From the NCBI GenBank assembly GCA_051532055.1, contig JAOPTX010000003.1, positions 153,064 to 217,063 of the forward strand: a DNA stretch of 64,000 nt, written 5' to 3'. The translations under genes and the position numbers were made by a program. This document shows, in pieces, positions 3,701 to 22,626 of the stretch. Source of the stretch: Fibrobacterales bacterium (GTDB lineage Bacteria; Fibrobacterota; Fibrobacteria; Fibrobacterales; JAOPTW01). The notes under the pieces were generated by a model. It was not told the DNA's origin and did no database searches. It worked only from the letters and a program-made list of their open reading frames with translations. The first letter of the stretch is position 1; each line of letters opens with the position of its first letter.

Positions 3701-6700
3701 ACTCATATTGATGGCAACTCAAGTTTCAAAAAATGTTGATCAGATGAGCCCAATAATCGTAAATCTTGACCCTAGTCATATTGATGCAGAACCAGAGTTC
3801 ACTCAATTGTCACTCACAGCTGATATTATTGGATTTACCACAGATATAGATATGACTGTAGTAAAAGGCCATGTTTCTGATGATAAAAATGGAGGTGAAA
3901 GCCATGAAGTTGTATTTGTACATCCTAAAGTTACGAACAGTACAGGCCCTGCTTCGCTTCTATTTTTGGGCAAAGACTATACTGATAGAACTGTTGATGA
4001 AGGAAACTACACTGCAATTATTGAAGCAAAAAGTAGTGAAATTGGTTTAATGAGACATTATTATCACTTTAGTGTGAGTATCCCTGAGCCTCCGACTAAT
4101 GATGATACACAACTACTTGTTGAACCAGGTCGTATACCTCTTGATTATACTGAAGGCTCCAAACCAAGAATTGATATTGAATTTGATATAAACAAAAAAT
4201 CAGATGTTAAAATTAAAATATTTCACAGTGCTGATTTAGTCAACCCAATCAGAAAATATTCTTTTACCAATAGCAGAACTGAACAATTATCATGGGATTT
4301 TTTAACTGAGCAAGGAGTATATATTGTTGATCAGTTAAATACTGATTCGCCTTTAGTTAATGAAAAAACTTTTGTAGTACAGCTCGTTAAAGGAACAGAT
4401 GTATTAGCAACCCAAAATGTAGTTATAGAAGAAGCAATACCTGAGATTACTTATGCACCAAGTATTTTGGAATACACTCCTAATGCTGCAGGAGTTTGGG
4501 AGGCGGGTATCCATTCAGGTTACAAATTTAAGGCACTCGCAAAAGGTGATCTTCAATTTATACCTAATAAAAATCTTAAACCGGGCATGGAGGTGAGTGC
4601 TAACCAAAAAGTAAGAGTATTTCCAGAAGTTCCTTATCGGATGACTTATTCAAAATACTATAATACTGCATCAATTTTTGCAAATTATGAAATAACTGCA
4701 GAGGGTAGACATGCTGGATATGGTGTATGTTGTTCGGGATCATGGACGTCGGAATTGGCAAAGGATAGTGAAAAAAATCTAATTAAAACTATCGATGGTA
4801 GTGGGCGCTTTGCTTCGACTAATGATGTGACTCCCCAATTTTCTAAAGACCCCAGTTATGTAGCAGGGGAATCAAGCCCTATCTGGTATGGTGATATTGA
4901 ACCATGGTTTGATCAAAGTCAACTGAGTTCTTATGATAAATGGTCTGAGTGCTTAGAGTTTCACCAAGAAGCGTTTGTTATGAACAAAAATAGTTTATCA
5001 ATTAATGAATTGTTATTCCAAGCACGTGTAATGGGGCAAGATGGAGAAGGTGATGATGCTTTTAAAGAAAGAAAAGGGTCGTTACAGCTAGGGGTTAATT
5101 TTGGAAAACTTAACGCTGGTTGTGGTCTAGATTTGGCGCAAGGATATCCAATACCACGATTAGAAAATGAAATGAAGACATGGGGAGCAGTAGGCTACGG
5201 TCCATTTTGGATGGTAAGATCAAATAATTGGAGTACCGACACGTATCATTCTCATAAATTTAATTATAGTAATTGGGATAGAGACGCTGGAGACCCACCA
5301 AGAAATCACGCGTTTTATCCCATGAAATATGTAAATGATTCAATTGACTTTACTCATCCTACCTTATATAAAAGAGATCTTATCATTGATGAACCAATAA
5401 GTTATCAAAATTATTTGAATTATTTGGATGGTGTTGCTGGGAATGATGAAACACTTTTACCTACAATCCCTGATGATTATCCTTGGGACGATGGTATATC
5501 ATTGGGTATGAGATTTGGAATGCGTGGATTTGCTTATACGCACAAAGATGATACTTATTTAAATGGTGGGTCGGGTAATGATGGCTTTACACATTTATTG
5601 CCTGTTATATACCCAAAGGATTTCATAGAAAACTACTATGTAATAGATCGACCTGATAAAGGAGAAACTTTAATTAATAAAATAGGCCATATGTATTGGT
5701 CCAATGAGCAGTTTAGTACCAATAACAGAGATAATATTGGAATATTCCCCATATTGAAAATTGACCTCTCAACTAAAGGGTATACGTGGGATGATATTGA
5801 AGTAGGTTATCCAATTGGTGATGGTACGGGTTTAAATATAGAAAGAAGAAATAATGAACCTGTTGTTGTTACCTATCGTAATGTCTACGAAGAGAGTGAA
5901 ATTGTCGGCAACGATATTGTTATGAGTGTACCTACAAATTTTCAATCAACAGGAGATGCTGCTGACGATGAAATACTCTGTTTTCCTATAAACCAGTGGA
6001 TTAGTGGGACAGAAGGTCTTTTTGAAGAGTTATTACGTAATGTGAAATCAAGAAGTGATGTCGTTCCACCCGATGAATACCCATATGTATTAAAAGAAAC
6101 GTTGCAATTTTCTGCAATTCGACCCTTATCAACCTATATCAATTATGATCAAACTATTGAAACATTGGACCCGAATGATTTTGCGCTCCATTTTAATGAA
6201 GATATTTTTTATAACTTCACCCAATCAGAGATTAATAATTCTGGGTGTCCCAATCCATCCCAATACTCATTAGATGATGTGGTTTATAAACTTACTAATA
6301 GAAATGCACCTATGACCGCTAATTATTGGAGTTCTAAAGATGATCCAGCTTTTGCTGTATATGATGGGTATCTCTATGGTTCAGGTAAATTTAACGAGCA
6401 TGGCTTCAAAACTCAACAAAATGCAATGTCAGAAAATGGTAATGGCTACCGAGGCCTTGTACAAGAGCTCATAAGTAATGTTAATGTAAACTTGGCAATC
6501 CCAACAGAGCAAGGGCCTCAAATTGTATCACCTTTTGTGAATAATAATGGAGCTGTAGAATTTAACTCAAATATTTTACCCTCAAGTCTTGAATGGGTTA
6601 TTGATGTATATCATCATGATGGGGAACAACTTAATGACGCTCTTGAAGTTAAGAATCAAAATGAGGAGGAAATGTTCAATCTAGGATTGGCACTTGATAT

Positions 6701-9700
6701 TACACCCAAGAATTTTGTTGAAATTAGAGGTGCTATACCTAATGCTATTCCTGTGGCTGAATCTGGTTTAAGTAATGATATACACTTTAAGTCTTATCAA
6801 CTTTTTGCTTATGTACCTGTAAAAGAAAAAAATGAAGCGGAAGAAAATTATTCAGAGGCTGAGTATCGATATGAACAAATCTCAGTAAATAAATACTTTC
6901 GGTCTGACCTAGCACTGGATAAATTTGAAGGTGATATCCTCCCACAACGAACGTTAGACTTATGGGACAACAGTGAAACTGGTTCAGTGAATCCCGTATT
7001 AGGATATTGGGATGTGACTCATTTAAATGGTCTTTATGATATTGTATTAAGGATTACGTATGTTGACAATAATAGTGGTAGTACCTATCTCGTAAAAAAA
7101 CCAATTAAAATACAAGTAGGAACAGAATTAGTTGCTGGACTAGAACCAGTAGTTCAGTCTACTTATAAACGTGCTGAATTAAATATGCCAGATGGCTCAT
7201 TTACTTCAGGAGATGTACTTTCAATGTATCCTGTTTCGTATAAGGATTTGTCATTGGGTGATGATTTACCTGATGTTAAACCAATTGGTCCAGTAATAGA
7301 AATTAAAACCACTGGTAGTACTAAAAAGTTCGAAGGTACATCGAAGCCGGTAATAACCTATCAATATAGTGCTCGTGAAATTTTTCAAATGAATGGTCGA
7401 TTGGCGGACTTTGAATTGTACAAAAGTACTAGCGACATCTCTGCATTACGAACTGAATTGCTCACATTTATTAGTACCTATAATGTCTATATGTTGAATG
7501 AAGAGGGGCAATTGGATGAAATGCCAACAATTGGAACACTATCTTCTCATGATTTACCTTCAGAGATTGAAGAACTATCAGTACTACTCACTGCGCCAGT
7601 TTCACACTTTTCTTGGGCTGTTGTGCTTGAAAGTTCAACTCTACCAACATTAACTCATGCCATTATCGAAGGTACGGATGTAATTGTAAAAGGTACGTAT
7701 GGGACACCTATAGTAGGTACCATTCCAACGGATTTGGAACTATATATTCATAAGTTCAATTCTCGTTCTGAGAGCCCAACATATATTAGAGGTATATGGA
7801 GTCCGGTGATCAACAAAACAGGTACTTTTGAATTAAGAATTCCTATTTCGGAATTCTATCCTGGTGATAATTATATATATGCGTCTTATGCAGTGCCAGC
7901 ACCTCAGGTAGCTCAAAATTCAGCTAAAATAAAAGTTGAGATCGAAACTGCACAATTACTAGTAGAAGATATTAAAGCGTACCCATCAGTTTTTGAACCC
8001 CATTGTGAAAAGAATAATTACTCGCTTTCATTTGCTGCGTCTAAATCAGGCATTGCAACACGGTATATACTTGATAACTTTGATAATGTAGTTTCTAAAG
8101 AAGTAGTTGCTATAGACTATGGTATTAATAGATTTAAATGGGATGGGTGTGTAGAGCAATCAACATTAAATTATGGTGAGTATTTAGTTAAATATATTTT
8201 TGAGGGTGCCGGCAGTCAAAACTTTGTCATGGGATTAAAGTTGACAGCATCTGATCAAATTAAATCCGTAAAGAGTATTAATGTAAAGTATTCGAGGTTT
8301 TTGCCTTCAGTCACAAATTCTCGACATTTACAGCACTTTAAAATTTATACACACGGTATTGATGCTGCTTCTGATTTAACCATTAATCTGAGTAGAGAAA
8401 GTGATGCCACTAGTTGGACGCTCACACCAGAATTATGGGAAACAAAAAACAATGAGTTTGTCTATCGTGCTACTTGGAACGGTCTCAATGGAAATACTAT
8501 TGAAGTAGATGATACCTACAAGGTAACTGTTAGCCATTCTACTCAAGGCGTGGTTACTCCATTAAAAAAGGAATTTGAATTATATAGCTCCATTCCCCCA
8601 AGTGTAGCTGTTACCCATAATTTTGGATCAGGTGATGTGCCAAGTACGGTACCAGCAATAGAAGTGCTCTTAACAAATAGTGTGAAAATGGGTGTTGTAC
8701 TTTGGTTAGAATACCTTAATGGTGATATTTTCTCAACTGAATTAGGCAAGAAAGGAACTGCAACAACAAGTGATCGCTATGACGTTGTAAATTCTGGTTC
8801 CAAAAGATATACTGTTAAAATGAAAAATAGCGAATTTCCAACAAGAATATTTGCACAATGGGAAACCGAAGAAGGAGAGTCTGGTTTAGTATCTTCTACA
8901 ATATCGGTAAATTATAATCCTGTTTTAACCGGGATCAATCATGGTAGCCTTGAGATTCAACCTCAAGTGTCTGATGTTTTTAGGTCACATTTTGAAAATA
9001 GAGGTCGGTTTACCGCATATAGCAGATCCACGTATGTTGAGTTTACGAGCTCTCGAGCTGGCGAGGTCCGGTATGTTGTAGAACGTAATGGACAAGTCTA
9101 TCGTAACGACAATTTAGCAATTAGAAGAGGACCGAATAAACTGTTTTGGGATGGAAAAGATGACCAAGGAAACTATGTACCTAAATCAGGGATATATACA
9201 ATTAAGGTCTTTACTCAACCAAGTGACCCAAGTGGTACTGAACAACTAGTTTCATCGTGTACTTATTCAGTTGATGTATATATTGTTCCAGATATAGCTA
9301 TATGCAAAAGTTCTGATCCGATATACACTCAAAATAAAATTACAGATCCCAATAGATTTGTAACTGGATTAATCACAAAATTATCTCAACCATTAGTTGG
9401 GATTACCAATGTTATGGAGTTATCACCCGAAGAAACAGTGGGGTATATGCAATATAATCCTAATGGAATGGTGGTGATTGTAAATGATATTACGCCAAAG
9501 GAGATATTTGATGGTACTCGAGATAATCCTCTATTTAGCTATATAAGGTCAGGCGGTAATGCAGTATTTATCAATTCTTTTCCATTTGCTCACTATGTAG
9601 ATCAATTCGGTAATATTCAAAGTAGCTTAGAACTTTCTCTACTCTTATTAGGTGAAAATGAACAGCAAGGACTTACAGCATTACAAGATAGAATGAATGC

Positions 9701-12700
9701 ATTGTATGCATTGTCTGAAGGTGTCACTCAGTTTGATGGGGCACAAGTTGATGACCTTTCTGCTGTGGTGACCAGCGGAATTTTGAATGCTGGGTTAATA
9801 GGTACAGGTGTACCTCAAAGCTACTTAGTTGAAAATGGTGGTTTGTTTAGTCCTCAATTATTTACTGATCAACAAACATTACCCAATGGTGCTCTCGAAA
9901 CATTTATTCATTCAGGTTACTTTAAGCCAAAGTTTAAAGCTACTGAATTACATAAATCTGGCGCATTTCTAATTATGCATCCATTTGGTTTTGTGATGGA
10001 TAATAGTACTGCAGGGATTCAAAAAGAACAAGAAGTTACTGAGGATGTAGCAAACTCAGTATACAGAAATTTCTTTGCAAATGATTTATATATCTTGTCT
10101 AGAGATGTGAAAATTACTCATAATGATGACAAAATTTTACATAGCGAATCTATTGATATATCAGTAACAATAAACTATAAGGGCAAACACACAATACCTT
10201 CAGTGGAGGTCGTGTTAACAGACCTCAATAACAGCAATTGGACTCAAACACTAAACTATTCTAATATATCTATGGGTAGCAGTGAATCTGAAAGAACACA
10301 AACTATCACCGTTCCAATAGATGCATTAGCAAGTTTTGATAGACATATAGTTACTGTAGATATTACACCGTTTTCTATTAATGTACCTCCTCTGGTGATT
10401 AATGAAGAAGTAGTGTATAATAATCAAACTCAGGCGGTGTATTATGTACAATCAAATATAGCGCCTACTCTTACTATTAATAATATTACTAGTGGATACT
10501 TTGATGGCTTAATCACAGGCCTCGCAACGGGGCTCCCATACGAAGTAAGTGGCTCAATTGTAAATAGTCACGGGCAAGGTGATATTAAGCTAACTACAAT
10601 TCTCAAAGATAATGCCGATAATGGTATTAAATTTTATAGTAGTACTCTTGTAACTACACCTAATTTTACACAAGAAGTATCACCAACTGTAGATCTAGAC
10701 CCTACACATAATTACTCAGTATCTATATCAGCCAAGGATAAATATGATAATCAAACAGATGTTGAATATCTTATCAATATTGATGGTGAACTACCCGTAA
10801 TTACCCAATTGACGTGTGACAATTCACATGTTACCAAAATATTTGGCACTGAAGCGGTACATTATGTCATTGATGATATTGCACGATTTACCTTTGAAGT
10901 ATCTGATAATTTAGGGTTAAAATCTTACACACTAAAACGAGGGCCTGCAGTATTAGTTGATGAGGTATTAAGTGGTGTAACTTCTGGCATTCAGACTTTT
11001 ACATTTCCTACAACTGAAGGAGACTTTACATTTATTACCACTGATAATGCTGGTAATGAAATGAAACGAAACTTCACTATAGTCAATGATGTGGAGAAAT
11101 CTGTGGTTCGTATTTTAAATGTTGGAAATACCTTAATGCATCAAGTCGTTGATGGTACCATAACAATTTCTGAGGATGCATTTATGTATGATGAACCTCT
11201 ATTTGAACATTTCCCATTAGTTGTGAGAGGAACAGATGAAGAAAATGAGTTTATTGAAACAGCACGAAATGATTTCGCTACTATTGGTGTAAATGTCGAT
11301 GAACTTCCAGGATTCAAAATTGGTGACTATAGTACTCATTTTATGCATACTACGACAAAGGCAATGTTCCTAATAGATATTTTTGAAGAACATTTAAATT
11401 CTGTAAAAGTGAAAATTAATGATGATCCAGCTGTTGATGCGAGTACTTTAGATCCATTTCAATCATTATTACCAGCCTCGATGCTCCCAATGTATACTAA
11501 TCATAAATATCATAGATATATTGAATTCGATGGGCTTATTGTAGGGGAAGAATATAACATTAAAGTCATGGTTGAGGATGAATCGGGTAATGTCACTACA
11601 ATAGATTTAAAGTTGGGTAATGCAATAAATAAATCTTATGTTGAAGACCCTCAAGGAGATAGAAGCTCTGCTATAGGTCCCGATTTTGGTGAAGTGTACG
11701 TTTCAACCGCTGAGCATACAGGATTTGGCTCACAAGAAGGTGGAGCATGGGTGTACTTTATGATTTATAGTTACAACAGTGACTTTGCTAACCAAATAAC
11801 TGACAACTATCTGTACATTGATGCTGATAAACTTGAAGTAACTGGCGCACAAGATGTAGGGAGAAACAGTCAAAACTTTGATGGGTTTGAATATCGAGTT
11901 ACATTTGGTTCTGTCGATGTACTTGATAGTGGAAAAGCTACAAATGTTACCCTTGAAGAATGGAATGGAACTGCTTGGGCTGCTTTAAGAGCTACAACAG
12001 AATGGAATGTAAATGCCTCTATACAAATAGATGCTAATCAAATTAATGATGTATGGACTCCACCACGTGGGGAGGGGCATCAGGTGACTCCATCAGATAA
12101 AATAGCGAAAGCACCAGGATCTGTTATAGAAATTGGGGTAAGATTAAATAACATGTATGCAAAAAATGACATCCGTTGGTTTTTAGATGGTGAGTATGAT
12201 GATGTATATAATACAAATACAACCCAGCCTTTCTTGTTTAAGTATATAACAGACGGGTCAAAATATATTGATGGTATCACTAAAGATTGGTATACCGATA
12301 CTCCATTTAATGCATTGAGATCAGATATACTTGTGAGTGCTAAACCTTCAGAAAAAGATATACCAATTCAAAACACATGGGAAGAACAGAAAATATCATT
12401 CTCTATTCTGAATAATGGTTTTACAGATGTTGGTAATGTTTCCTTACGCTATTTTATAAACCTTGGTGGTTGTACAGATGTACGAACATATTTAGATAAT
12501 GTTAATGAAACATTTTGGAAGATAACAACTGATGCCCCAATTCAGGCTAATACACTGGGTAGATATAAAGGATTAGATGATGATATCTATTTTGTTGAAT
12601 TGGAATTTATTACCCGTGTATTAACACCAGGTGCTGAGTTGAAAGGGATCCCTTACTTTACTCTTAAAGGGAATGGTTGTACGACTAGATTCGAAGATAA

Positions 12701-12782
12701 TTTTAACAATCAACTTCCAAACAATGTTGAACTCGTTAATGAGCATAACCGTTCATTATTAAATTCTCAAATTACAGAATAA
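729..12782 (+). CDS. giant secreted multidomain protein (about 4015 aa) with FlgD-Ig-like modules, thrombospondin type-3 Ca-binding repeats and Ig/CARDB-like modules
   Basis: Uninterrupted 12-kb ORF. The likely real start is ATG 735 ([23 protein letters not shown] signal peptide). At least four 'x-W-D-G-x-D-x-x-G-x-x-v-x-x-G-x-Y' FlgD-Ig-type signatures are present ([50 protein letters not shown]). TSP3 repeats [15 protein letters not shown] / [14 protein letters not shown] / [14 protein letters not shown] lie at nt 3279-3629. 'D-x-AGN' Ig-like modules also occur. Confidence 0.9.
   Translation: [4017 protein letters not shown]
3279..3629 (+). repeat. thrombospondin type-3-like calcium-binding repeats (coding, inside the giant protein)
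   Basis: DxDxDGxxDxxDNC(P/V)Y motifs with paired Cys recur over about 115 aa: [35 protein letters not shown] ... [35 protein letters not shown]. Confidence 0.75.
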
Positions 12783-12793
12783 GATATCATATT

Positions 12794-15700
12794 ATGAAAG
12801 ATTATAAAACTATGAAAAATGTAAATAATATCAGTGCTTCAATATTAACTGTTCTACTCGTTGTCATATTAGCAGTCCAACTTGGATTTTCAAGTATCAT
12901 ACGATCTAATGAGCAAGGTATAAACGGAAACCACAATTTTACTTCTGGTGGCCCTGGTGCCCAAATTAGCACTCTGAATGGAAATATGGTTATTACTTCA
13001 ACTGCTGCTGATATTTCTAGGGCTCCCTTAGGTATCCAAGTAAGTCGAAGTTATAATTCTGGGTGGAGAAATGCAACTCAGGCCCACCTAATGGATGTAC
13101 AAAAAGATGGAAAATTTAAAGATGTTGACCGTACTCCTGATGCATTTGATTTTGCACCAAATTTTCTTCAGAGAACATTCTATTATAGACCTGACGTAAC
13201 AGAGAATCCATCAGGATACCAAACATCAGCTCTACTTGCAGGAGCATCAGCTACGTATGCAATAGGTGGTTCGATATTAAACTATACTATAGCACAGCAA
13301 AAAGAGGCCGCCGGTACAACACCGCAACCTAAAACTGGATTAGATCACGCAGCGACAGCAATGACAATTATTAATACTGCTTTTAGCTTAAAAACTCTTG
13401 CAGAAAGCAATGGTGATTTTAATAATGTTCAATCATTTCAAGCAATTAATAATTTATCATCATTTGTTTTAAAGTCAGTGACCGAAAAAGCTACTAAAGA
13501 GACAATTGGTCAAATATCAGGTACTATCGGTGCTGCTCTTACCATGTATTCTGCAGCCAAAACTCTATCAAATGTAGAAGATGGCTCACCAGGAGATGAA
13601 GCTCAAAAGATAGCGGCTGTTACTCAAATTGTTGGTGCCATGGGTAGTATGATGGCAGCAGCGAGCGCGGCTTCTGCAGCTACAGGAGTGGGAATCGCCA
13701 TAACAGCGGCAGTTATAGTTGTTCAGATAACTGCTATGTTAGTAACAATTCAAGAAGTACTTGACGCAAATTTAGATATTGCAGAGTATCGACCTCACCC
13801 ATGGCTTTTTGGGGTTAATGGTTATGTGATGCTCGTGGGGACAAAGTATGAGGATGAAGAGGCTCAATATTCAAATATGTTCGGCGGATATTCGAGTAGA
13901 GAAACCTACCAACACTGTACAGCAAGAAATAAAAATGGTTGTTCTAACTACGAAACTCGTTGGAGAGGTGTTGGCGACCGTTCATCAGGTCATCCTATGA
14001 CTGATATGCAGCTGGTTAAGTCTGACGGTGGATCAACGCGGTTTGTTATGGAAAACCATCATTATCAAATACATAATGATGGCATGCAAGATATTAGATA
14101 TTATAATTATAAATCTTTATCAAATGCAAATTTTAAAGAAATATACTATGTGGATTACCCCCCGTATCAGACAAATGATTGGACTAATGGTATACCGGTT
14201 CATACATCAGATTTATTAGGTGTTGGTGACTATTATATGATAAAAGAACCTAATGGTACTGTAGCGAAATTTGGTGTCTCCAGTGATAAAGGAATATACA
14301 GGCATACTGCACGTAATTATCCAAGAGAAATGTATTGGTCTTTTATAGATGAAATTTCTCATACTATATCAGGACAAGTTATAACGGTTAACCGTGATGC
14401 AACGAGTAAACAAATTACGGAGGTCACACATAGTGCAGATACACGAAGGGTAACTATTGATAGGTCTCCAACTCAAGAAGTTGTTAAAGTAGTAGATGGC
14501 ACAACAGAGTTATCAAAAATTACCTATGATTTCGGCCTTATTGATTACACTTTTTTTAAAGAGACAAAGTATAGAAATGACCCTATCCTTGATGCTTCAG
14601 GAAATCCCGTAATAGATGATGAATCAGGAGAAACAGCAACGAAGACCGTTTCGTATGTATATGAACACAAAGCTCAAATGAAAATGATAACAAAAGAATC
14701 TCGCCAGGTTGATGCATCAAATAGTGCAAAAGATTTGATTAAAAATTATGTGTATGATGAATATGGTAATATGACACAGATAAGTACAACAAATGGTAAT
14801 ACTTACAATTATAGCTATTCCGAACTTGATACTCCTACTGAGGGATTTGTAATGAATGTACTCATGGAAAATGGCGCTAAAACAACATCGTTAAATAAAA
14901 AGTTTACGTATACTGGCTGGTCAATCGGATCAGCTGATGGTTATCAGGATGGTTTAAATGGAACTGTTATGACAACTGACATTGTGACAAGTCTCACACA
15001 CCCCGATCTACCAAATAGTGACTATCCAAATAAACATACTATCTTAGAAAAAACAACGTTTAGGGTATCGCAAGATACTTCAACAATTAGACAAATTAAA
15101 AATGCAACTGAATTTTTAGCAACGGGTACGTCGTCAGAAGAGGTAACGAAATATGGTACTGTGGGAATGCAATTATTGTCTCATCAACTTGGATCTTTTG
15201 GCATTGGTCCAATGATAAGTTACCGATATAATGGTGATTTGTTGACAACGACTATTAAGAGAGAACAATCAAACCTTAATATAGATCCAATAATAACCTC
15301 TTATCACTATGATCACTATGGTAATCAAATAGCAGTATTAAATTCTTCTAAAATAGATATGGATAACTACGATGCTGCCTTTTTTGCTATGCATGCAAAC
15401 CTAAAACCCTATGATTGTATAAACGAAATAGAAGTGTGCGAATGTGATAATCCAAATTATGACCCTGATATTCATCCAGTTTCAGAAAGATTTATGGAGT
15501 GCAAAAATCCTGATGTTCTCAATTGTTATAGTAATTTTCCTACTCTGGTCGACTGTAGATCGAGAGATGTAAACTTTTGTACCGATGTTAATTCAAACCC
15601 AGTAGCCTGTTTGGTTGTTGATCCTCTGTTAAGAAAATGTGAAGTTGTAGAAGAGCCTATTGTAGGGTGCACTGAAGATATATTCGAGCAGAATGTTGAG

Positions 15701-18700
15701 GCTAACAAACAAGCCATTTATACACAAATTAATACACAATTTGGAATCGATTATAACTTACTAACATTTGAAGTAGTAGATATTAACACCTACAGTTTTT
15801 ATGATAGTAAACAAATAGCGGGTAATTTTTATAGCAAACGGTCACTAACAACAACTGAAAGAACAGATCAACGTACAAAGTTTGAATCTAAGTATCCTGG
15901 TGAAATATTGACGGATGCAGATCTTGACATGAGTAACAAAGAGATCTTAAATCCATTGTTTGATCCTAATGCTCTTTATTTACCAGGGATTTTAAACGAG
16001 CAACATACCAGTAGACTTCATCCAGATGAAAATGAACTTCTGAGCTATTCTTTTGGTACTAAATATTCATTGAATACTGATTATCTTCCCATTTCTGAGC
16101 ATAGAATAATAAATGGAAATAGCGCTGATACTGCTCTTATTCTGGTAAAAGAAACAGCATATAATGATCCGGCTAATAGATTTGCTCCAACAGGGAAAAA
16201 AACGTATATAGATGATGGCATGTATGCATATGACTCAACAAAATACGACGCTAAGTATCATCAATACCCTGTAGAAAATCATGTTTATAAAGGTGTTTTT
16301 GATATAAATACAACACCAGCTGCGGTGGGTGATTTTGTTACTACCTTGGTATATAACCCAAAAAACTTTCTTGAGACACAAACTAATCCCAATTTGCAAA
16401 CCACTTCTTTTACTTATGATGATGTAGGGAGGGTTGTCAGCACCTTAAACCCAAATGGTACTACTATTATTACAGAACATAACGATGCTCAAAATTATGT
16501 TATGCAGATCAATTCAACAGGTCAAAAATCAAAAATTGTACAGGATGGGCTCGGTGTTGATAGTACTTTTATTACATACGATAATACTGGTACTCTCACA
16601 CAAACATCAAAAAAAGTCTATAATCAATCAGGTCTTATTTATCAACAAGACAATGATGGACGTGAACTTTTTAATTATTATAGTGACGCTGGCAGATTAT
16701 ACATATCTCAGGTACCAGAAGTAAAGGGAGAGTATACCCGATATATTCAAACAAACTTTGAGTATGATTTTTTAAATAGAACAAAAACTACTATTGATCC
16801 TTTACTTAGAAGAACAATAGAGCACTCTAATAAAAACGGCCAGGCAATTAAAATAGAGTCTGAAAAAACGGGTGGAGGCTTTATTACAACCCAATATATC
16901 TATGATAATTTTGGAAATTTAGTCGAGACAATTGATCCTAATGGCAATAGTGAAACTATGGTATATAATCACATGCAACAACCGACTACGGTGGAGTATG
17001 CTGATCAATATAAAATCGAGTATTTTTACACAAATCAAGGGCGTCTAAAGCGTTTTGATAAAACAGACCTTTCACAAACACCTACAGTCACTACATCTAT
17101 CAAGTACGGTAGGGACGGACTTGATAGAGTTATTGCCGATACCGTTGTGTCAGGGTTAGAGCAGTTGGAAACTTATTACACCTATGATAATGCAACGTTT
17201 AATACTACTACTTATGCATACCCACAAAAACTAGTAGATATCACACGTGATAGTTTAAAGGTTAATTTTAGTTATGATAATTTTGGGAATTTGACTGAAA
17301 AGGTAACCCGTATTTACCCAGGGGCAATTTTTACTTCAGGCCCAACCTATTATGGGTCAATTGGTTATGGTTATAGAGATGATTTTAGTGTTGAAACAAT
17401 GACTATAAATGGTGACCTCGCACTAACATATGGTCGCGACCCCTATTTTAGAAATAATACTATTTCTGGTTCATACAAAAGTGGGGCACTGTTTGATATT
17501 ATTAAATCGGTGACTTTTACGCCTAATAACATGGTGGACCAAGTCGTGTATGGGAATAATATTACCACTACCTATGGGTATGATTCCAATAGGCCTATTT
17601 TAAAAAGTATTGAAGCGACAATGGATAATGCCCATGAGCCATTTTATAAACATATAATTACTAATTTAGGAAAGACAGGAAACATAGAGAGAATACAACG
17701 CCACAATGGGACTGAGGCGGCTTATGAGTATGATAAGTTAGATCGCCTTATATCAGTTGGCTATCCTGATGGTGGTGTTGGGGGGAATAATCTTGTAATG
17801 GCCTATGATAATAATGGTAATATTGAGAGTTTTACCCATGATTTTGGTCAGATAGATTACTTTTATAATACTACAGGAAGTGGCGCTACTATTAAACAAC
17901 AAAATACTCTTATCAAATCACATTCGGCACTAAATGGTTGGGCAGTATATGATTATGATAAAAATAAAAATCGAACGTCAACAAGTTATTACAATAAATC
18001 GAGTGACTTAATAGCCGGCAACACTAATTGGCATGTACGACATGAATATGGATTTGACCTACTGAATAGAATGAAAACCTATGTTAAAAAAACTAAGTCA
18101 GGGCAAAGTGGCATTGAGGCTGTAAGTGAGTATCTCTATGATTATGATATTGATGGAGCTAAATTGGTAACCCATAGAAAAAATGGTGCAGGTTTATACG
18201 AAAAACAAAAAGAGTTTGTCTATGAATGGCCTAATGTAGTGTACGAAGCAGATACAGTTTCTGGCGATAGTTCTTATTTTGTATTCTGGGGTAACGAGCG
18301 TATTGCTGAAGTTAAGATAGAGAGTGAAATGCCGGAAATCTATTTTTACCATAATGATCACCTTGGTACTGTTAACCAGATAACTACAAATGAAGCAATA
18401 CCTTCAGTTGTTGCACGATATACTTTTGATCCTTATGGAAATTTAGAGTCATATCAGGGAAGTTATCACACAAATTATTTTTATACCACCAAAGAATGGG
18501 TTCCTGAAATGGGTATGTACTATTTTGGCGCTCGGTATTATGATCCGCATACATTGCAGTGGATGAGTACAGACCCTCTATTTGAATTTAATTCTCCTTA
18601 TAGTTATGTTGGTGGTAATCCACTTAGATTAATTGATCCTGATGGTAAAGACGCCATATTAACGAAAAATGATGTTGATAATACAATTACTATTGAGTCT

Positions 18701-19222
18701 ACAATTTTTATATATGGGGATGAGGCTTCCGCTGATGTTGCAGAACAGATACAGGGTAATATTATGGACGCTTGGGACAATAAAGAATACATGGATGAAG
18801 AAACAAAGGTAAAATATAAGGTAGTATTAAAATTAAAAGTTGTATCTATGGGGAAAGATAAAGATCCTCTAGCTGCTCATGTTGCAAAGAGAGATGGTAT
18901 TAATTTCATTAAGATAGCTGACCCCAATACTTCTTATGTGAATGCAGCGAATGGTAGAACTGGTGAATGGCGAGGCCCTTCTTCATGGGAAGACTATGAT
19001 AATCCTGCTGCACATGAATTTGGGCATTTGATAAGACTAGATGATAAATACTTTTCTAATAAAGCAGGGTATCCTGCTCATCCAGGGTGGAAAGGGACGA
19101 TTATGGGGGAATCACCAGGTGAAGGTGTTGTAACAGGAAAAGTAATGTGGAATTTACTTAATAAAAGAAAATATGATGTAAATAATCAATTTTTTATCAA
19201 TTCTACAACAACTTATAGGTAA
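12794..19222 (+). CDS. RHS/YD-repeat polymorphic toxin with N-terminal membrane anchor and C-terminal zinc-metallopeptidase-like toxin domain
   Basis: Many YD repeats are present (YDEYGNMTQIS, YHYDHYGNQIAV, FTYDDVGRVVST, YIYDNFGNLVETIDPNGN, YEYDKLDRLISV). The RHS-associated core reads YFYHNDHLGTVNQIT...YTFDPYGN...MGMYYFGARYYDPHTLQWMSTDP...NPLRLIDPDGKD. The N-terminal hydrophobic helix is ISASILTVLLVVILAVQLGF. The gene starts 11 nt after the giant gene. Confidence 0.95.
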   Translation: MKDYKTMKNVNNISASILTVLLVVILAVQLGFSSIIRSNEQGINGNHNFTSGGPGAQISTLNGNMVITSTAADISRAPLGIQVSRSYNSGWRNATQAHLMDVQKDGKFKDVDRTPDAFDFAPNFLQRTFYYRPDVTENPSGYQTSALLAGASATYAIGGSILNYTIAQQKEAAGTTPQPKTGLDHAATAMTIINTAFSLKTLAESNGDFNNVQSFQAINNLSSFVLKSVTEKATKETIGQISGTIGAALTMYSAAKTLSNVEDGSPGDEAQKIAAVTQIVGAMGSMMAAASAASAATGVGIAITAAVIVVQITAMLVTIQEVLDANLDIAEYRPHPWLFGVNGYVMLVGTKYEDEEAQYSNMFGGYSSRETYQHCTARNKNGCSNYETRWRGVGDRSSGHPMTDMQLVKSDGGSTRFVMENHHYQIHNDGMQDIRYYNYKSLSNANFKEIYYVDYPPYQTNDWTNGIPVHTSDLLGVGDYYMIKEPNGTVAKFGVSSDKGIYRHTARNYPREMYWSFIDEISHTISGQVITVNRDATSKQITEVTHSADTRRVTIDRSPTQEVVKVVDGTTELSKITYDFGLIDYTFFKETKYRNDPILDASGNPVIDDESGETATKTVSYVYEHKAQMKMITKESRQVDASNSAKDLIKNYVYDEYGNMTQISTTNGNTYNYSYSELDTPTEGFVMNVLMENGAKTTSLNKKFTYTGWSIGSADGYQDGLNGTVMTTDIVTSLTHPDLPNSDYPNKHTILEKTTFRVSQDTSTIRQIKNATEFLATGTSSEEVTKYGTVGMQLLSHQLGSFGIGPMISYRYNGDLLTTTIKREQSNLNIDPIITSYHYDHYGNQIAVLNSSKIDMDNYDAAFFAMHANLKPYDCINEIEVCECDNPNYDPDIHPVSERFMECKNPDVLNCYSNFPTLVDCRSRDVNFCTDVNSNPVACLVVDPLLRKCEVVEEPIVGCTEDIFEQNVEANKQAIYTQINTQFGIDYNLLTFEVVDINTYSFYDSKQIAGNFYSKRSLTTTERTDQRTKFESKYPGEILTDADLDMSNKEILNPLFDPNALYLPGILNEQHTSRLHPDENELLSYSFGTKYSLNTDYLPISEHRIINGNSADTALILVKETAYNDPANRFAPTGKKTYIDDGMYAYDSTKYDAKYHQYPVENHVYKGVFDINTTPAAVGDFVTTLVYNPKNFLETQTNPNLQTTSFTYDDVGRVVSTLNPNGTTIITEHNDAQNYVMQINSTGQKSKIVQDGLGVDSTFITYDNTGTLTQTSKKVYNQSGLIYQQDNDGRELFNYYSDAGRLYISQVPEVKGEYTRYIQTNFEYDFLNRTKTTIDPLLRRTIEHSNKNGQAIKIESEKTGGGFITTQYIYDNFGNLVETIDPNGNSETMVYNHMQQPTTVEYADQYKIEYFYTNQGRLKRFDKTDLSQTPTVTTSIKYGRDGLDRVIADTVVSGLEQLETYYTYDNATFNTTTYAYPQKLVDITRDSLKVNFSYDNFGNLTEKVTRIYPGAIFTSGPTYYGSIGYGYRDDFSVETMTINGDLALTYGRDPYFRNNTISGSYKSGALFDIIKSVTFTPNNMVDQVVYGNNITTTYGYDSNRPILKSIEATMDNAHEPFYKHIITNLGKTGNIERIQRHNGTEAAYEYDKLDRLISVGYPDGGVGGNNLVMAYDNNGNIESFTHDFGQIDYFYNTTGSGATIKQQNTLIKSHSALNGWAVYDYDKNKNRTSTSYYNKSSDLIAGNTNWHVRHEYGFDLLNRMKTYVKKTKSGQSGIEAVSEYLYDYDIDGAKLVTHRKNGAGLYEKQKEFVYEWPNVVYEADTVSGDSSYFVFWGNERIAEVKIESEMPEIYFYHNDHLGTVNQITTNEAIPSVVARYTFDPYGNLESYQGSYHTNYFYTTKEWVPEMGMYYFGARYYDPHTLQWMSTDPLFEFNSPYSYVGGNPLRLIDPDGKDAILTKNDVDNTITIESTIFIYGDEASADVAEQIQGNIMDAWDNKEYMDEETKVKYKVVLKLKVVSMGKDKDPLAAHVAKRDGINFIKIADPNTSYVNAANGRTGEWRGPSSWEDYDNPAAHEFGHLIRLDDKYFSNKAGYPAHPGWKGTIMGESPGEGVVTGKVMWNLLNKRKYDVNNQFFINSTTTYR
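18647..19219 (+). other. C-terminal toxin tip of the RHS protein (about 190 aa, metzincin/snapalysin-like HExxHxxxxxD)
   Basis: It begins right after the core-terminating DPDG motif (nt 18635-18646). HEFGHLIRLDDKY lies at nt 19013-19051. A candidate Met-turn (GTIMGE) follows downstream. Confidence 0.7.
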
Positions 19223-19705
19223 TTGGTGGCCTCTAGTTTACATTTCCTAGTAGTGATAGCTTTTCTATTTATTATTGGGTGTAATCATAAATCCAATGTT
19301 TGTGAAAGTGATGTTAATAAAAAAAACATTGACCACGAATATTTAGGTGGTGGCTTTATAAAGTGCTCTTATCAGGTAATAAATGATAGTAGTCATTTTG
19401 AAAAGTATTACCTTTCTTCCGAAACTTTTTACCACAGTAAAAATCTGGGTGGTCTTTCGGCATTTTATAAATCTCCTCGACGTGACTATGCTATATTTGT
19501 TAAAAATGAGGATGCTCAGCTATATGTATTTGATTTGGAAAGTGGTGAGGAAAAAATTGTAGATTTTGATGTAGCTATTTTCCCTGTTGAAGTGAAGTGG
19601 TCACAAAATAGCAAGCATGTAGTTGTTCATTATCGAAATGATGATAAATTTTTGGTAACGAAAACAGTTAGAATTGATTTATCAACAGGGGATGCAGAAA
19701 AGTAG
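19223..19705 (+). CDS. putative cognate immunity lipoprotein of the RHS toxin
   Basis: It sits immediately after the RHS stop (TAA 19220-19222). The frame contains no ATG at all, so the start must be TTG 19223 or GTG 19226, with an AGGT Shine-Dalgarno-like element at 19217-19220. A lipobox is present (LFIIGC, Cys20). Size (160 aa) and position are typical of toxin-immunity pairs. Confidence 0.7.
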   Translation: MVASSLHFLVVIAFLFIIGCNHKSNVCESDVNKKNIDHEYLGGGFIKCSYQVINDSSHFEKYYLSSETFYHSKNLGGLSAFYKSPRRDYAIFVKNEDAQLYVFDLESGEEKIVDFDVAIFPVEVKWSQNSKHVVVHYRNDDKFLVTKTVRIDLSTGDAEK

Positions 19706-20075
19706 GAGTATGAGATGCTAAAATTATTTCCCTGATTTTAAAAACTCTCTCCCTTGAGGGCTTTTTATGTCTCTATTTACTTAAAAAGTCCTGACCAAAA
19801 CTTAGGAATTTCAATATTATCAAACTATTCAATATCAGACTCTTTGGCTGTTTCAGAATTATATAGAGGGTTGATAGTAATATATCTACAGCGCCAAAGG
19901 CTATGATTGCCGATAGATGACTGTGTAATGGCTGAACATATGTCTTACCGTTTTTTTAGCATCATAAGTATTACTGAATTTTTCAGTTATCATTAAGAGT
20001 TTGTTCCTAACCGTTTAAATAGTTATTGTCTTATTATTGCTTAATGTTACAGGATGTCAAACAGGTATTTAAAAC

Positions 20076-20852
20076 ATGAAATTGAATGGATATATTAGTT
20101 ACTTATTTACAATCTGTTTTGTCTTTATGACATTACTCACAAATAATTCATACGCCCAATCAGGATCACTTGTTTTTGATGGCACATACGGGTTTTCTAA
20201 AGAGCTGTTCCCCATATCAATTGGCAATATCAAAGTAAAAACGCCGGTTGGTAAAGCGTATGAAGCGTTGCAAGAGGATAATGAATTTCATTACCAGCTT
20301 CATTTACACGGTTATTATTTCCCTTTTGATCATTTGGGTGTCGGGGCTTCATATTTCTCCTCTCAATCCTCAAGTAATTCAGTAGGTATGGATTCAATAG
20401 GATATATACAAACATCCTGGAACCATACTCGGTATGTTGAACACACTCTATTCATAGGATTAGTATCTGCAAGGTATTCAAATGAGATCGGAGCTTCACA
20501 GATAGATGTCGGACTAGGAGTTACTCAACTCAGTGTAAATGGTGTTTACAAAATGAATTCTGAAGGCTCGTTCATGAGTGTTAATGCACATATCTTACGC
20601 GCTACAGAAAAAAAATCTTTTACCTTGCTGTTAGTATATTCAAAAGCATTTCATATCTACTCAAAAATAGCACTGGTGCTTAAAGCACAACTTATCTATA
20701 GTGACTTTGGAAAAATTAATTTCCCCATAGTCAATTTAGATGTTGAAGGCAATCCTGAGGTAGATGATTCTGGTGAGGGTGAAGAGAATGACTCCGTTAA
20801 ATATACCTATTTGCAGGGCAACCTTTCAGCTGGTTTAAGAGTTCAGTTTTAA
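20076..20852 (+). CDS. putative outer-membrane beta-barrel protein
   Basis: Signal peptide ending ...NNSYAQ. Alternating hydrophobic beta-strand pattern throughout. The C-terminus ...SAGLRVQF ends in Phe, as in OMP sorting signatures. Confidence 0.55.
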   Translation: MKLNGYISYLFTICFVFMTLLTNNSYAQSGSLVFDGTYGFSKELFPISIGNIKVKTPVGKAYEALQEDNEFHYQLHLHGYYFPFDHLGVGASYFSSQSSSNSVGMDSIGYIQTSWNHTRYVEHTLFIGLVSARYSNEIGASQIDVGLGVTQLSVNGVYKMNSEGSFMSVNAHILRATEKKSFTLLLVYSKAFHIYSKIALVLKAQLIYSDFGKINFPIVNLDVEGNPEVDDSGEGEENDSVKYTYLQGNLSAGLRVQF

Positions 20853-20960: not shown

Positions 20961-22031
20961 ATGAAATATTATGCTGTAGTACTACTTCTACTTATCGCGA
21001 TGCTTTATAGTGGATGTGATCTTTTAGATGAACAAGAAACGACTTCTGACGTTATTCCGGAACAGACATATTGTTATATCATCGACAGTAATACAGACTC
21101 TGAGCAAGCTTCATCATTTTTAAAACAGCAAAAATGTGATTCTATTCTTTGTGAATCTATGAATGAAAAAGGTTTTTATTATTGCGAAGCAAGTACCATT
21201 GATTCCATCCTTCTTTTTCAAGAATATTTAGTTGAAAAGGTGAATGATAACCCCGCTAAATTTGAAGGTTTTTATATAAGAAATAGATTAAGCAGAGATG
21301 AAGTGACAACTGAAAATATTATAAACGATCATATATCATTCCAGAAAGATGGATTTCTCTCTTGGAAATCTTTTTCGCTAGACTACGATCAGTTACGCTC
21401 CGATTTAGAATTATATACCACACATGAAAGCCGTAAAGATATACCAGAATTTCAGTTGGATAAATATATGTTGTTAGATGAGGGTGATGGAGTTCAGAGA
21501 ATTATCGGGTATGACACAAATCATACTAATTCTTATGGTCTCAGTGATCTTAGGGGGTATCGTTGGGTATCTTTTCAACTGCGTGATCTATCTGATAATG
21601 GATTTACTGTTTATAATACAAGAAGTGATTTAAATGAAGTTGAAGAGATAGACTATATTAATGCCGAACCAGCAAAAATATATTTGAGCGGTAATTGGAG
21701 AGCTGTTGAAGAGATTTGGGAAAAAGATCTTGGTAAAGCATATGATATCTCTTTTGATGAAGATGGTACTCTTGAGTCTGATGACTGGTTTACTGAATAT
21801 GATGAGTATTATATTACCAAAAGTCCAAGAGAAGGAATGGTTTATCAGATGCATCTTCAGAGAGGCGATGTTGTACGAGCTTCTCAAATTGCAGAGTTTA
21901 AACAAGATAGTGTAATGGTGATTTTAAGGAACTTTTATGACAGAGATAAACCAATAGGGCTTGTTGACTCAGATAATAATGGCACAGCACATGGCGGATT
22001 TCCACTATACTTTTATAAAGTCTCTGAATAG
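20961..22031 (+). CDS. hypothetical lipoprotein
   Basis: Lipoprotein signal LLLLIAMLYSGC. No family motif recognised. Confidence 0.6.
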   Translation: MKYYAVVLLLLIAMLYSGCDLLDEQETTSDVIPEQTYCYIIDSNTDSEQASSFLKQQKCDSILCESMNEKGFYYCEASTIDSILLFQEYLVEKVNDNPAKFEGFYIRNRLSRDEVTTENIINDHISFQKDGFLSWKSFSLDYDQLRSDLELYTTHESRKDIPEFQLDKYMLLDEGDGVQRIIGYDTNHTNSYGLSDLRGYRWVSFQLRDLSDNGFTVYNTRSDLNEVEEIDYINAEPAKIYLSGNWRAVEEIWEKDLGKAYDISFDEDGTLESDDWFTEYDEYYITKSPREGMVYQMHLQRGDVVRASQIAEFKQDSVMVILRNFYDRDKPIGLVDSDNNGTAHGGFPLYFYKVSE

Positions 22032-22128: not shown

Positions 22129-22626
22129 ATGGTATCTATCAAATTATTAATTCGTTGTACGATCGTTGTAGCTGTATGTTCAGGTATTTTATTTGCGGGA
22201 GCATATAAAAAACCTGAAGGGTGGATAAAAAATAAGAATCCGCGTGAAGAAGTATTCAAGCAGTTTATTGCTCCTTCATCTCAAGGATATAGTGCAAATA
22301 TTACTGTTCGTAAAATTGAACGAAAAAAGAAACAGCGTGATCAAAAATTTCGACTTATTCTTGATGACTATATTAAAAAACAATCAAAGCGTAAATCTCA
22401 ATACACTATGCTTGTTAAACGTAAAGACAAAATTGGTGGAAACAAAGGAGTTTGGTGGAAGTTTAGTCATGTAAATAAGTCTACCGGTCAGAAAATTATT
22501 CAGCTAAATTTTGCAATAAAGGATAGGAAAGATTTTATTTTACTTTCCTTAGAATGTTCTAAACAAGACCTAAAACTCTTTAGAAAAACTTTTAAAAGTT
22601 TCTTGAATGATGTTAAAATAAAATAG
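22129..22626 (+). CDS. hypothetical exported or anchored Lys-rich protein (possibly PsbP/DcrB/DUF1795-like fold)
   Basis: N-terminal hydrophobic segment LIRCTIVVAVCSGILFAGAY. The layout 'P-E-G-W ... ANITV ... IGGNKGVWWKF ... LNFAI ... FILLSLEC ... F-x-x-F-L' loosely resembles PsbP/DcrB-type sandwich proteins. The fold assignment is speculative. Confidence 0.45.
   Translation: MVSIKLLIRCTIVVAVCSGILFAGAYKKPEGWIKNKNPREEVFKQFIAPSSQGYSANITVRKIERKKKQRDQKFRLILDDYIKKQSKRKSQYTMLVKRKDKIGGNKGVWWKFSHVNKSTGQKIIQLNFAIKDRKDFILLSLECSKQDLKLFRKTFKSFLNDVKIK

Follow-up and report, generated by a model that had tools for sequence, protein, structure and literature searches.

The 64,000-nucleotide (nt) stretch analysed here, referred to throughout as the window, lies on a 261,972-bp contig (JAOPTX010000003.1) of a Fibrobacterales metagenome-assembled genome (MAG) and encodes an RHS polymorphic toxin whose C-terminal tip is, judging by its conserved residues and its modelled fold, a real toxin domain of the metzincin clan from a new and uncurated family. 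Our favoured interpretation, held at a probability of about 0.6, is that the members of this family are small (~170–190 aa) metzincin-clan zinc endopeptidases, carried as the toxic cargo of a Sec-exported RHS toxin, aimed at a protein of the envelope or periplasm and countered by a lipoprotein immunity protein. The gene and the parts of it that matter most are as follows:

12794 to 19222, forward strand: RHS polymorphic toxin gene, 2142 aa (MGL1900705.1, 'hypothetical protein'), from the list of open reading frames (ORFs) and the source record
18425 to 18646, forward strand: Rhs-associated core (TIGR03696), aa 1878–1951, E 1.1e-15
18647 to 19219, forward strand: toxin tip, 191 aa (aa 1952–2142), with a predicted metzincin-type zinc endopeptidase fold

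The toxin gene is intact across all 2142 codons. Its product opens with a hydrophobic segment that reads, from the translation, as a Sec-type signal or anchor, continues with RHS/YD repeats (RHS_repeat at E 7e-11, with YD_repeat also matched, among Pfam and NCBIfam models) and ends its core in YYDP...NPLRLIDPDG (...YYDPHTLQWMSTDPLFEFNSPYSYVGGNPLRLIDPDG). The tip lies directly past the DPxG junction of that core, the position that defines the C-terminal domain of a polymorphic toxin, and an earlier note on this DNA, which had described a tip of roughly 190 aa right after the core end, was sound on this point. It also gave the LIDPDG sequence correctly and began it three nucleotides late: the motif spans nt 18629–18646, 18632 being the Ile codon. 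By analogy with published RHS/TcC work, the core end after IDPDG would be the autoproteolytic boundary that frees the tip. There is no Cys among the 191 residues of the tip, which suits a domain that must refold after translocation, and no further copies or orphan tips of the family were found within the window.

The catalytic site and its surroundings can be read directly from the tip sequence:

19013 to 19051, forward strand: zinc/catalytic motif HEFGHLIRLDDKY, containing His2074, Glu2075, His2078, Arg2081, Asp2084 and Tyr2086
19013 to 19027, forward strand: HEFGH
19034 to 19036, forward strand: Arg2081 (AGA), at the usual metzincin Gly position
19043 to 19045, forward strand: Asp2084, +10 from the first His
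19049 to 19051, forward strand: Tyr2086, +12 from the first His
19088 to 19111, forward strand: WKGTIMGE, the candidate Met-turn, with Met2104 at 19103–19105

HEFGH, the Asp at +10, the Tyr at +12, the Arg in place of Gly and WKGTIMGE are thus all present as the earlier note had listed them. Following the metzincin literature, zinc would be held by the two His of HExxH (His2074 and His2078) and by Asp2084, six residues past the second His; Glu2075 would act as the general base that activates water; Tyr2086, a candidate 'tyrosine switch', probably helps to stabilise the transition state; and the conserved Met (of GNIM in the family, GTIM here) would pack beneath the metal site.

The strongest evidence for this site comes from relatives of the tip. 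A word-indexed homologue search with the tip returned no relative, and the family surfaced only when 1.84 billion cluster representatives (50% identity clusters) were scanned exhaustively with phmmer: 206 passed E<=1e-3, 45 of them E<=1e-10, and the best-scoring relative other than the tip itself stood at E 4e-21, with identities to the tip of 28–53% among the matches listed. The window tip, itself among the sequences from which the family hidden Markov model (HMM) was made, scores 188 bits against it. Conservation was counted on a 144-sequence domain alignment, whereas modelling and library tests used 47 aligned members. Across the 144 sequences neither the Glu nor the second His ever varies; the first His and the Asp at +10 are each kept in 143, the Tyr at +12 in 141 and the Gly at +7 in 133 (92%); in the downstream GWxGNIM segment the Met is kept in 137, which bears out the Met of the Met-turn proposed in the earlier note, the Trp in 113 and the Asn in 110, where the window tip has Thr. 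The family consensus reads HEFGHLLGLxDRY...GWEGNIMAE, and the window tip agrees with it in 21 of the 22 columns that are conserved at 80% or more, the Gly being the single exception.

Metzincins, of which some 17 families are recognised, are defined by the motif HExxHxxG/NxxH/D together with a sheet of five strands, a backing helix, an active-site helix, a Met-turn and a helix at the C-terminus (PMC12237041). An Asp as third zinc ligand is described as 'rare' in the clan, being found in snapalysins and thuringilysins, and a Tyr two residues past the third ligand serves as the 'tyrosine switch' of several families (PMC12237041). The tip family has the extended zinc motif at canonical spacing; the window copy has its H, E, H and D, with Arg2081 standing where Gly or Asn would be expected three residues after the second His. 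In family and window copy alike a Met lies between the third ligand and the C-terminal helix, judging by the Met position together with the model helix, Met2104 falling 20 residues past the Asp ligand with the predicted C-terminal helix next. The fold itself was modelled with AlphaFold2 on the 47-sequence family alignment, giving a mean predicted local distance difference test score (pLDDT) of 87.2 and a predicted TM-score (pTM) of 0.85, where a single-sequence run gave a pLDDT of 39.7. The alignment-based model runs through a strand, a long backing helix, further strands, a short HExxH active-site helix, the Met loop and a C-terminal helix (alignment positions 167–175), and shows the five-stranded sheet and the backing, active-site and C-terminal helices of the clan. 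A Foldseek comparison of this model with the PDB placed fragilysin, ADAMTS4 and ADAM22 in the top eight places (best E 2.5e-3 for 7pol, probability 0.98, TM 0.41); below these, probabilities were <=0.2 except for ADAMTS1, another metzincin, at rank 17 (0.33). The credible fold matches of the model are accordingly all metzincins, as the metzincin interpretation of the earlier note would have it.

Placing the tip within a named metzincin family is another matter. The tip alone had no relevant match in Pfam, NCBIfam, PHROGs, PADLOC or PDB sequences, and no curated Pfam or NCBIfam model exceeded its threshold for any of the 47 members or for the family consensus, in keeping with the earlier note, which could assign the tip to no named group; the Pfam models of Tox-MPTase2-5 gave no match to tip, members or consensus at E<=1–10. 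Below threshold, motif-length matches came from Peptidase_M6/TIGR03296, M10, Reprolysin_3/4/5, M7/NF033628, M64 and M43. The M6 model TIGR03296 matched 33 of the 47 members weakly (best E 2.3e-6) and Pfam Peptidase_M6 nine, with the consensus reaching 16.8 bits against a cutoff of 110.8 over residues 132–156; the M7 model PF02031 matched six members (best E 1.1e-3) and not the tip itself, and NF033628 matched 14 (best E 1.9e-3), with the consensus at 12.6 bits against a cutoff of 300. When the family profile was run against all PDB sequences, snapalysin came first (1c7k/1kuh/4hx3, E 0.002, aligned at HETGHVLGLPDHY) and the M64 IgA proteases next. Hhalign paired the family with a single snapalysin sequence or with a 17-sequence M7 alignment at 92–95% probability over 23–24 columns only (94% for the family alignment against the M7 alignment, which was drawn from the best 120 matches and is low in diversity at >=80% identity), and relaxed settings gave a colinear alignment from the first strand to the C-terminal helix with near-zero confidence outside the motif. 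Comparison with peptidase families, which the earlier note had suggested, thus returned snapalysin, M6 and M10.

Two memberships were consequently rejected: M7 (snapalysin), where the similarity is confined to the motif and the curated thresholds of PF02031 and NF033628 are not reached, and M6 (thuringilysin), where TIGR03296 and PF05547 give motif-length matches below threshold. The zinc-site spacing that the earlier note ascribed to snapalysin is borne out by the best profile match and by hhalign; its specificity for M7 is not, because M6 thuringilysins have the same His-His-Asp-x-Tyr motif, as do, more loosely, M64 igalysins. As significant similarity extends over only ~24 columns, the better description is of a snapalysin-like zinc site in the metzincin clan. 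On both alignment and model, the tip is a metzincin-clan domain with a zinc site of snapalysin/thuringilysin type, and sequence comparison does not establish it as belonging to M7, to M6 or to any of the Pfam Tox-MPTase families.

Comparison with known enzymes sharpens this picture. Snapalysin, the small neutral protease of Streptomyces (M7; 1C7K/1KUH/4HX3), shares the HExxHxxGLxDxY arrangement, including the Asp third ligand and the Tyr two positions on, in a very small single-domain metzincin that likewise has a downstream Met and a C-terminal helix. The tip domain, however, is ~60 residues longer and has no Cys, places its Met 20 residues past the Asp rather than 10, differs in the window copy by the Arg for Gly, and is an RHS cargo with an immunity gene in diderm phyla and Saccharibacteria, whereas snapalysin is an actinobacterial secreted pro-enzyme. 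The M6 enzymes, whose matches to the tip family are of motif length only, are large multidomain secreted proteases. Thuringilysin/immune inhibitor A is nonetheless alike in belonging to the other metzincin family with an Asp third ligand (PMC12237041). Fragilysin (BFT) and the adamalysin/ADAMTS catalytic domains are metzincins and the best fold matches, yet the TM-score is ~0.4 and the identity 10–12%, their third ligand is His and they have no toxin-immunity context. The mini-zincins (DUF1025, provisional M94; 3E11) have HEXXHXXGXXD in a very small domain, but are cytoplasmic and end soon after the Asp without a Met-turn (PMC3890501), in contrast to the conserved Met, C-terminal helix and exported-cargo setting of the tip family.

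Among polymorphic toxins we know of no Pfam model for Tox-MPTase1. Tox-MPTase1-5, Tox-HopH1 (M91) and PVC-metallopeptidase resemble the tip in being HExxH domains at the C-terminus of RHS or other polymorphic toxins, but are described as zincins, Wss1-like or otherwise, that show neither GxxDxY nor a Met-turn and for which no immunity family is given (Zhang et al. 2012, PMC3482391). From Tox-MPTase1 the tip family is set apart by the published description only ('HExxH', Wss1-like; PMC3482391), and there is a small, though appreciable, chance that the family has already been described under that name. The closest functional precedent is the C-terminal metallopeptidase of Pseudomonas aeruginosa VgrG2b (DUF4157), a periplasm-acting effector with envelope immunity: it is toxic only in the periplasm, requires its catalytic Glu and His, and is countered by an envelope-located immunity protein (PA0261), whose counterpart in Enterobacteriaceae is a lipoprotein, its substrate being undefined (PMC6899460). 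VgrG2b differs in being a thermolysin-like gluzincin, with Glu as its fourth residue and delivery on a type VI secretion system spike, and has no sequence relationship with the tip.

The best clue to the compartment in which the tip acts, and one absent from the earlier note, is the exported nature of the gene that follows it:

19226 to 19705, forward strand: candidate immunity gene, 159 aa from the annotated GTG at 19226 (MGL1900706.1), with a TTG at 19223 in frame
19745 to 19770, forward strand: terminator-like hairpin and T-run, by consensus match (1 site against 0.4 expected in shuffles)

The toxin stop codon occupies 19220–19222 and the downstream ORF, called as a gene in two sources, starts 0–3 nt later; its position suggests that it is the immunity gene. 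Its product has a predicted lipoprotein signal (...LHFLVVIAFLFIIGC) with the lipobox IIGC, the Cys codon lying at 19280–19282. The terminator-like site, ~40 nt past this gene, is a probable operon end. No Pfam, NCBIfam or PADLOC family was found for the downstream ORF, nor any similarity between it and the downstream ORFs of 27 related loci, which were gathered with a 6-sequence alignment; three of the loci (L024, L026 and L027) are motif-region matches only and are excluded from the family members. A small downstream gene, as in a toxin/immunity module, is present in the window and in ~20 related loci. In the 24 loci with a downstream ORF, an export-type hydrophobic N-terminus is found in 20 and a clear lipobox in at least eight; the four without an export segment comprise two motif-only matches and two loci without a plausible cognate ORF. 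At least four families, none of them in Pfam and with no detectable similarity between them, can be told apart among these downstream proteins, and such diverse small exported proteins beside one conserved toxin domain are the expected signature of polymorphic immunity. Their export implies an encounter between inhibitor and toxin beyond the cytoplasm, and points to a periplasmic target.

One of these sets of proteins deserves separate mention: a nine-member family of ~117-aa lipoproteins (...LYEYQS.LY...W...), without a Pfam match, is encoded downstream of the toxin in Bacteroidota loci (L005, L009, L010, L011, L013, L015, L016, L021 and L025). The set is a promising candidate for a new family of immunity proteins or metzincin inhibitors.

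In architecture the relatives resemble the window protein. An RHS core end precedes the domain in the great majority of 150 listed representatives, many of which are fragments of metagenomic genes, at a junction of the form ...YDFGARxYDxxxGRWxSxDP...SPYxYxxNNPxxxxDPxG(K/R)D, and full-length relatives (1172–3013 aa) begin, like the window protein, with Sec signal peptides. A few members are stand-alone secreted proteins, and a metagenomic protein of 454 aa (P0048) joins an N-terminal HEAGHIVQQ region of DUF4157/PVC-metallopeptidase type to a tip-family domain at its C-terminus. The N-terminus of P0048 indicates that the domain is a mobile toxin cassette used beyond RHS scaffolds. The 24 loci with clear members come mostly from Bacteroidota, with others from Gammaproteobacteria, Acidobacteriota (Acanthopleuribacter, Holophagae), Bdellovibrionales, Saccharibacteria and one unclassified MAG. 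Among the carriers are cultured organisms, namely Acanthopleuribacter pedis KCTC 12899, Persicobacter diffluens NBRC 15940, Mariniflexile ostreae CECT 8622 and Ascidiimonas aurantiaca. Because the family is invisible to Pfam and NCBIfam, its named members carry no label beyond 'RHS repeat-associated protein' or 'hypothetical protein', and no precomputed Pfam domain was found on the tip region of those retrieved.

A different arrangement is seen in a Bdellovibrionales MAG (L020, JAFEAP010000006.1), where two stand-alone copies of the domain lie in tandem at 3908–4600 and 4611–5315, each with a Sec signal peptide and with neither RHS sequence nor a small downstream ORF. The upstream gene (2613–3890) carries MepA-like motifs (HASHQIGLDADI...HADHMHV) of murein-endopeptidase type. 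These copies may represent a predatory use of the same protease in degrading the envelope of prey.

From the gene anatomy, the family and its catalytic residues, the predicted fold and the exported downstream proteins, which are observed here and in relatives, we infer a mechanism in which autocleavage, delivery, compartment, proteolysis as the toxic act, immunity and substrate class each have a place. As in other RHS/TcC proteins, the tip would be enclosed unfolded within the YD-repeat shell and cut off after IDPDG by the aspartyl autoprotease of the core, before being passed to a neighbouring diderm cell. Inside the target periplasm it would acquire its fold and its zinc and cut at least one protein of the envelope or periplasm, while the producer would be protected by the translationally coupled lipoprotein, binding and blocking the protease in the periplasm. 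The lipoprotein immunity genes suggest that the tips probably kill rival bacteria from within the periplasm.

An alternative that keeps the same domain and compartment makes peptidoglycan, through its stem peptides or cross-links, the substrate. Exported or lipoprotein immunity is indeed typical of cell-wall-targeting effectors, and the stand-alone copies of the Bdellovibrionales MAG adjoin a gene of murein-endopeptidase type. The credible neighbours of the domain (snapalysin, fragilysin, ADAMTS, M6 and M10), however, are all metzincins that cleave proteins or peptides. To our knowledge, the metallo-peptidoglycan endopeptidases adopt LAS-type folds (M15, M23 and M74) rather than the metzincin fold, which also counts against this substrate. 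Furthermore, no hydrolase activity on peptidoglycan was seen with VgrG2b, itself a periplasmic metallopeptidase (PMC6899460). Peptidoglycan is therefore an unlikely target in our estimation, if one to be kept in mind alongside the envelope or periplasmic protein that we favour.

The Arg of the window copy raises a separate doubt: the family may consist of proteases while this particular tip is a crippled or decaying member in which Arg2081 blocks the turn to the Asp ligand. The Gly that it replaces is part of the metzincin consensus HExxHxxG/NxxH/D as well as being kept in nearly all relatives, the AGA codon is only one transition away from GGA (Gly), and the Thr in GTIM is a second change at a near-consensus position. 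Against decay, one must consider that the gene is intact, that every other highly conserved column of the tip is kept, and that the candidate immunity gene is likewise intact and tightly coupled. Gly is absent from 11 of the 144 representatives, which have R, C, S, S, D, K, K, N, K, Y or L in its place, so that ten others besides the window tip have substituted C, S, D, K, N, Y or L; the Glu, the second His, the Asp and the Tyr survive in all 11, although the first His has become Tyr in one and the Met is missing from two. Since these members keep their remaining residues, and since Asn is accepted at the same position in lower pappalysins (PMC12237041), the position appears to be tolerant in the tip family. 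The model is also confident through the motif, with block pLDDT values of 96 and 92. A Logan assembly of SRR21695763 encodes an identical protein, Arg included, and may stem from the same reads as the MAG. On balance we consider a loss of activity in the window tip improbable, though conceivable.

Less probable again is that the protease serves nutrition or acts on non-bacterial targets (host, protist or extracellular proteins), the downstream lipoprotein then having no part in immunity. Fragilysin, InhA/thuringilysin and snapalysin are all secreted and act on host or environmental proteins, and certain members of the family are secreted on their own, no small ORF following their genes. Encapsulation by RHS together with a tightly coupled small downstream gene is, by contrast, the signature of a toxin and its immunity protein, and a downstream gene that is small, exported and diverse in sequence in at least 17 relatives is hard to explain without an immunity function, leaving this possibility a slim one.

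That the HExxH is a coincidence in a non-peptidase fold, as one might suppose from the lack of any peptidase model matching the tip alone and from the 0.048 occurrences expected by chance from the composition of the 2142-aa protein, in which HEFGH is the sole example (2.4e-4 for HExxHx5DxY, seen in 6 of 20,000 shuffles), is effectively refuted by the profile matches to snapalysin, M6 and M10, by the metzincin fold matches and by the full motif being kept across 144 relatives, a conservation that speaks more strongly against chance than the counts do.

Elsewhere in the RHS protein, an Ala/Gly-rich stretch in the N-terminal third (aa ~200–330, window ~13400–13800) contains a transmembrane-like helix, GVGIAITAAVIVVQITAMLVTI, and forms a local peak in GC content (0.438 against ~0.34 in its flanks). 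Its sole match, Diphtheria_T at E 2.6, is non-significant, and the stretch could be a membrane-insertion or translocation module.

The surroundings of the gene contain further large or exported proteins. Immediately upstream, an ORF of 4017 aa (window 729–12782, forward strand), with a signal peptide, an FlgD Ig-like domain and thrombospondin type-3 repeats, stops 11 nt before the RHS gene; the two are probably co-transcribed, and an adhesin or a delivery partner of the RHS toxin are both candidate roles for its product. Past the terminator-like site, three forward-strand ORFs (20076–20852, 20961–22031 and 22129–22626) have signal or lipoprotein N-termini, without significant Pfam matches or similarity to the tip family or the immunity candidates. 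At 42242–47083 (forward strand), a further large protein of the cell surface or of secreted type, 1613 aa long and unrelated to the toxin, combines GLUG motifs with InlB B-repeat-like domains and the N-terminal region of an M26 IgA1-peptidase. Secretion-system genes were looked for within the window and none were found.

No metzincin- or snapalysin-type interbacterial effector came to light in full-text searches of the literature. Metallopeptidase tips on RHS proteins are known, and almost none of those on polymorphic toxins has a known substrate, the curated ones being other zincin types; what is new here is a different clan, an uncurated family and exported immunity. More tentatively, and at slightly less than even odds, the tips would form a new metzincin family with the rare His-His-Asp-x-Tyr site, a mobile antibacterial cassette carried mainly on Sec-exported RHS proteins of Bacteroidota, Fibrobacterota, Acidobacteriota, Gammaproteobacteria, Bdellovibrionota and Saccharibacteria, which cleaves a conserved periplasmic or outer-membrane protein and is countered by at least four unrelated families of lipoprotein or anchored inhibitors. 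If true, this would be the first case of an interbacterial effector from the metzincin clan, and its unrelated immunity families would provide several new, natural protein inhibitors of metzincins. Such a finding is useful and testable, if not surprising in principle. The family is abundant and taxonomically broad, its catalytic site is of textbook form and lends itself to mutation, and naming and modelling it would allow better annotation of the RHS loci of Bacteroidota from gut and environment. As the exported immunity proteins point to a target in the envelope, the family may ultimately offer a tractable route to a new essential vulnerability of the periplasm.

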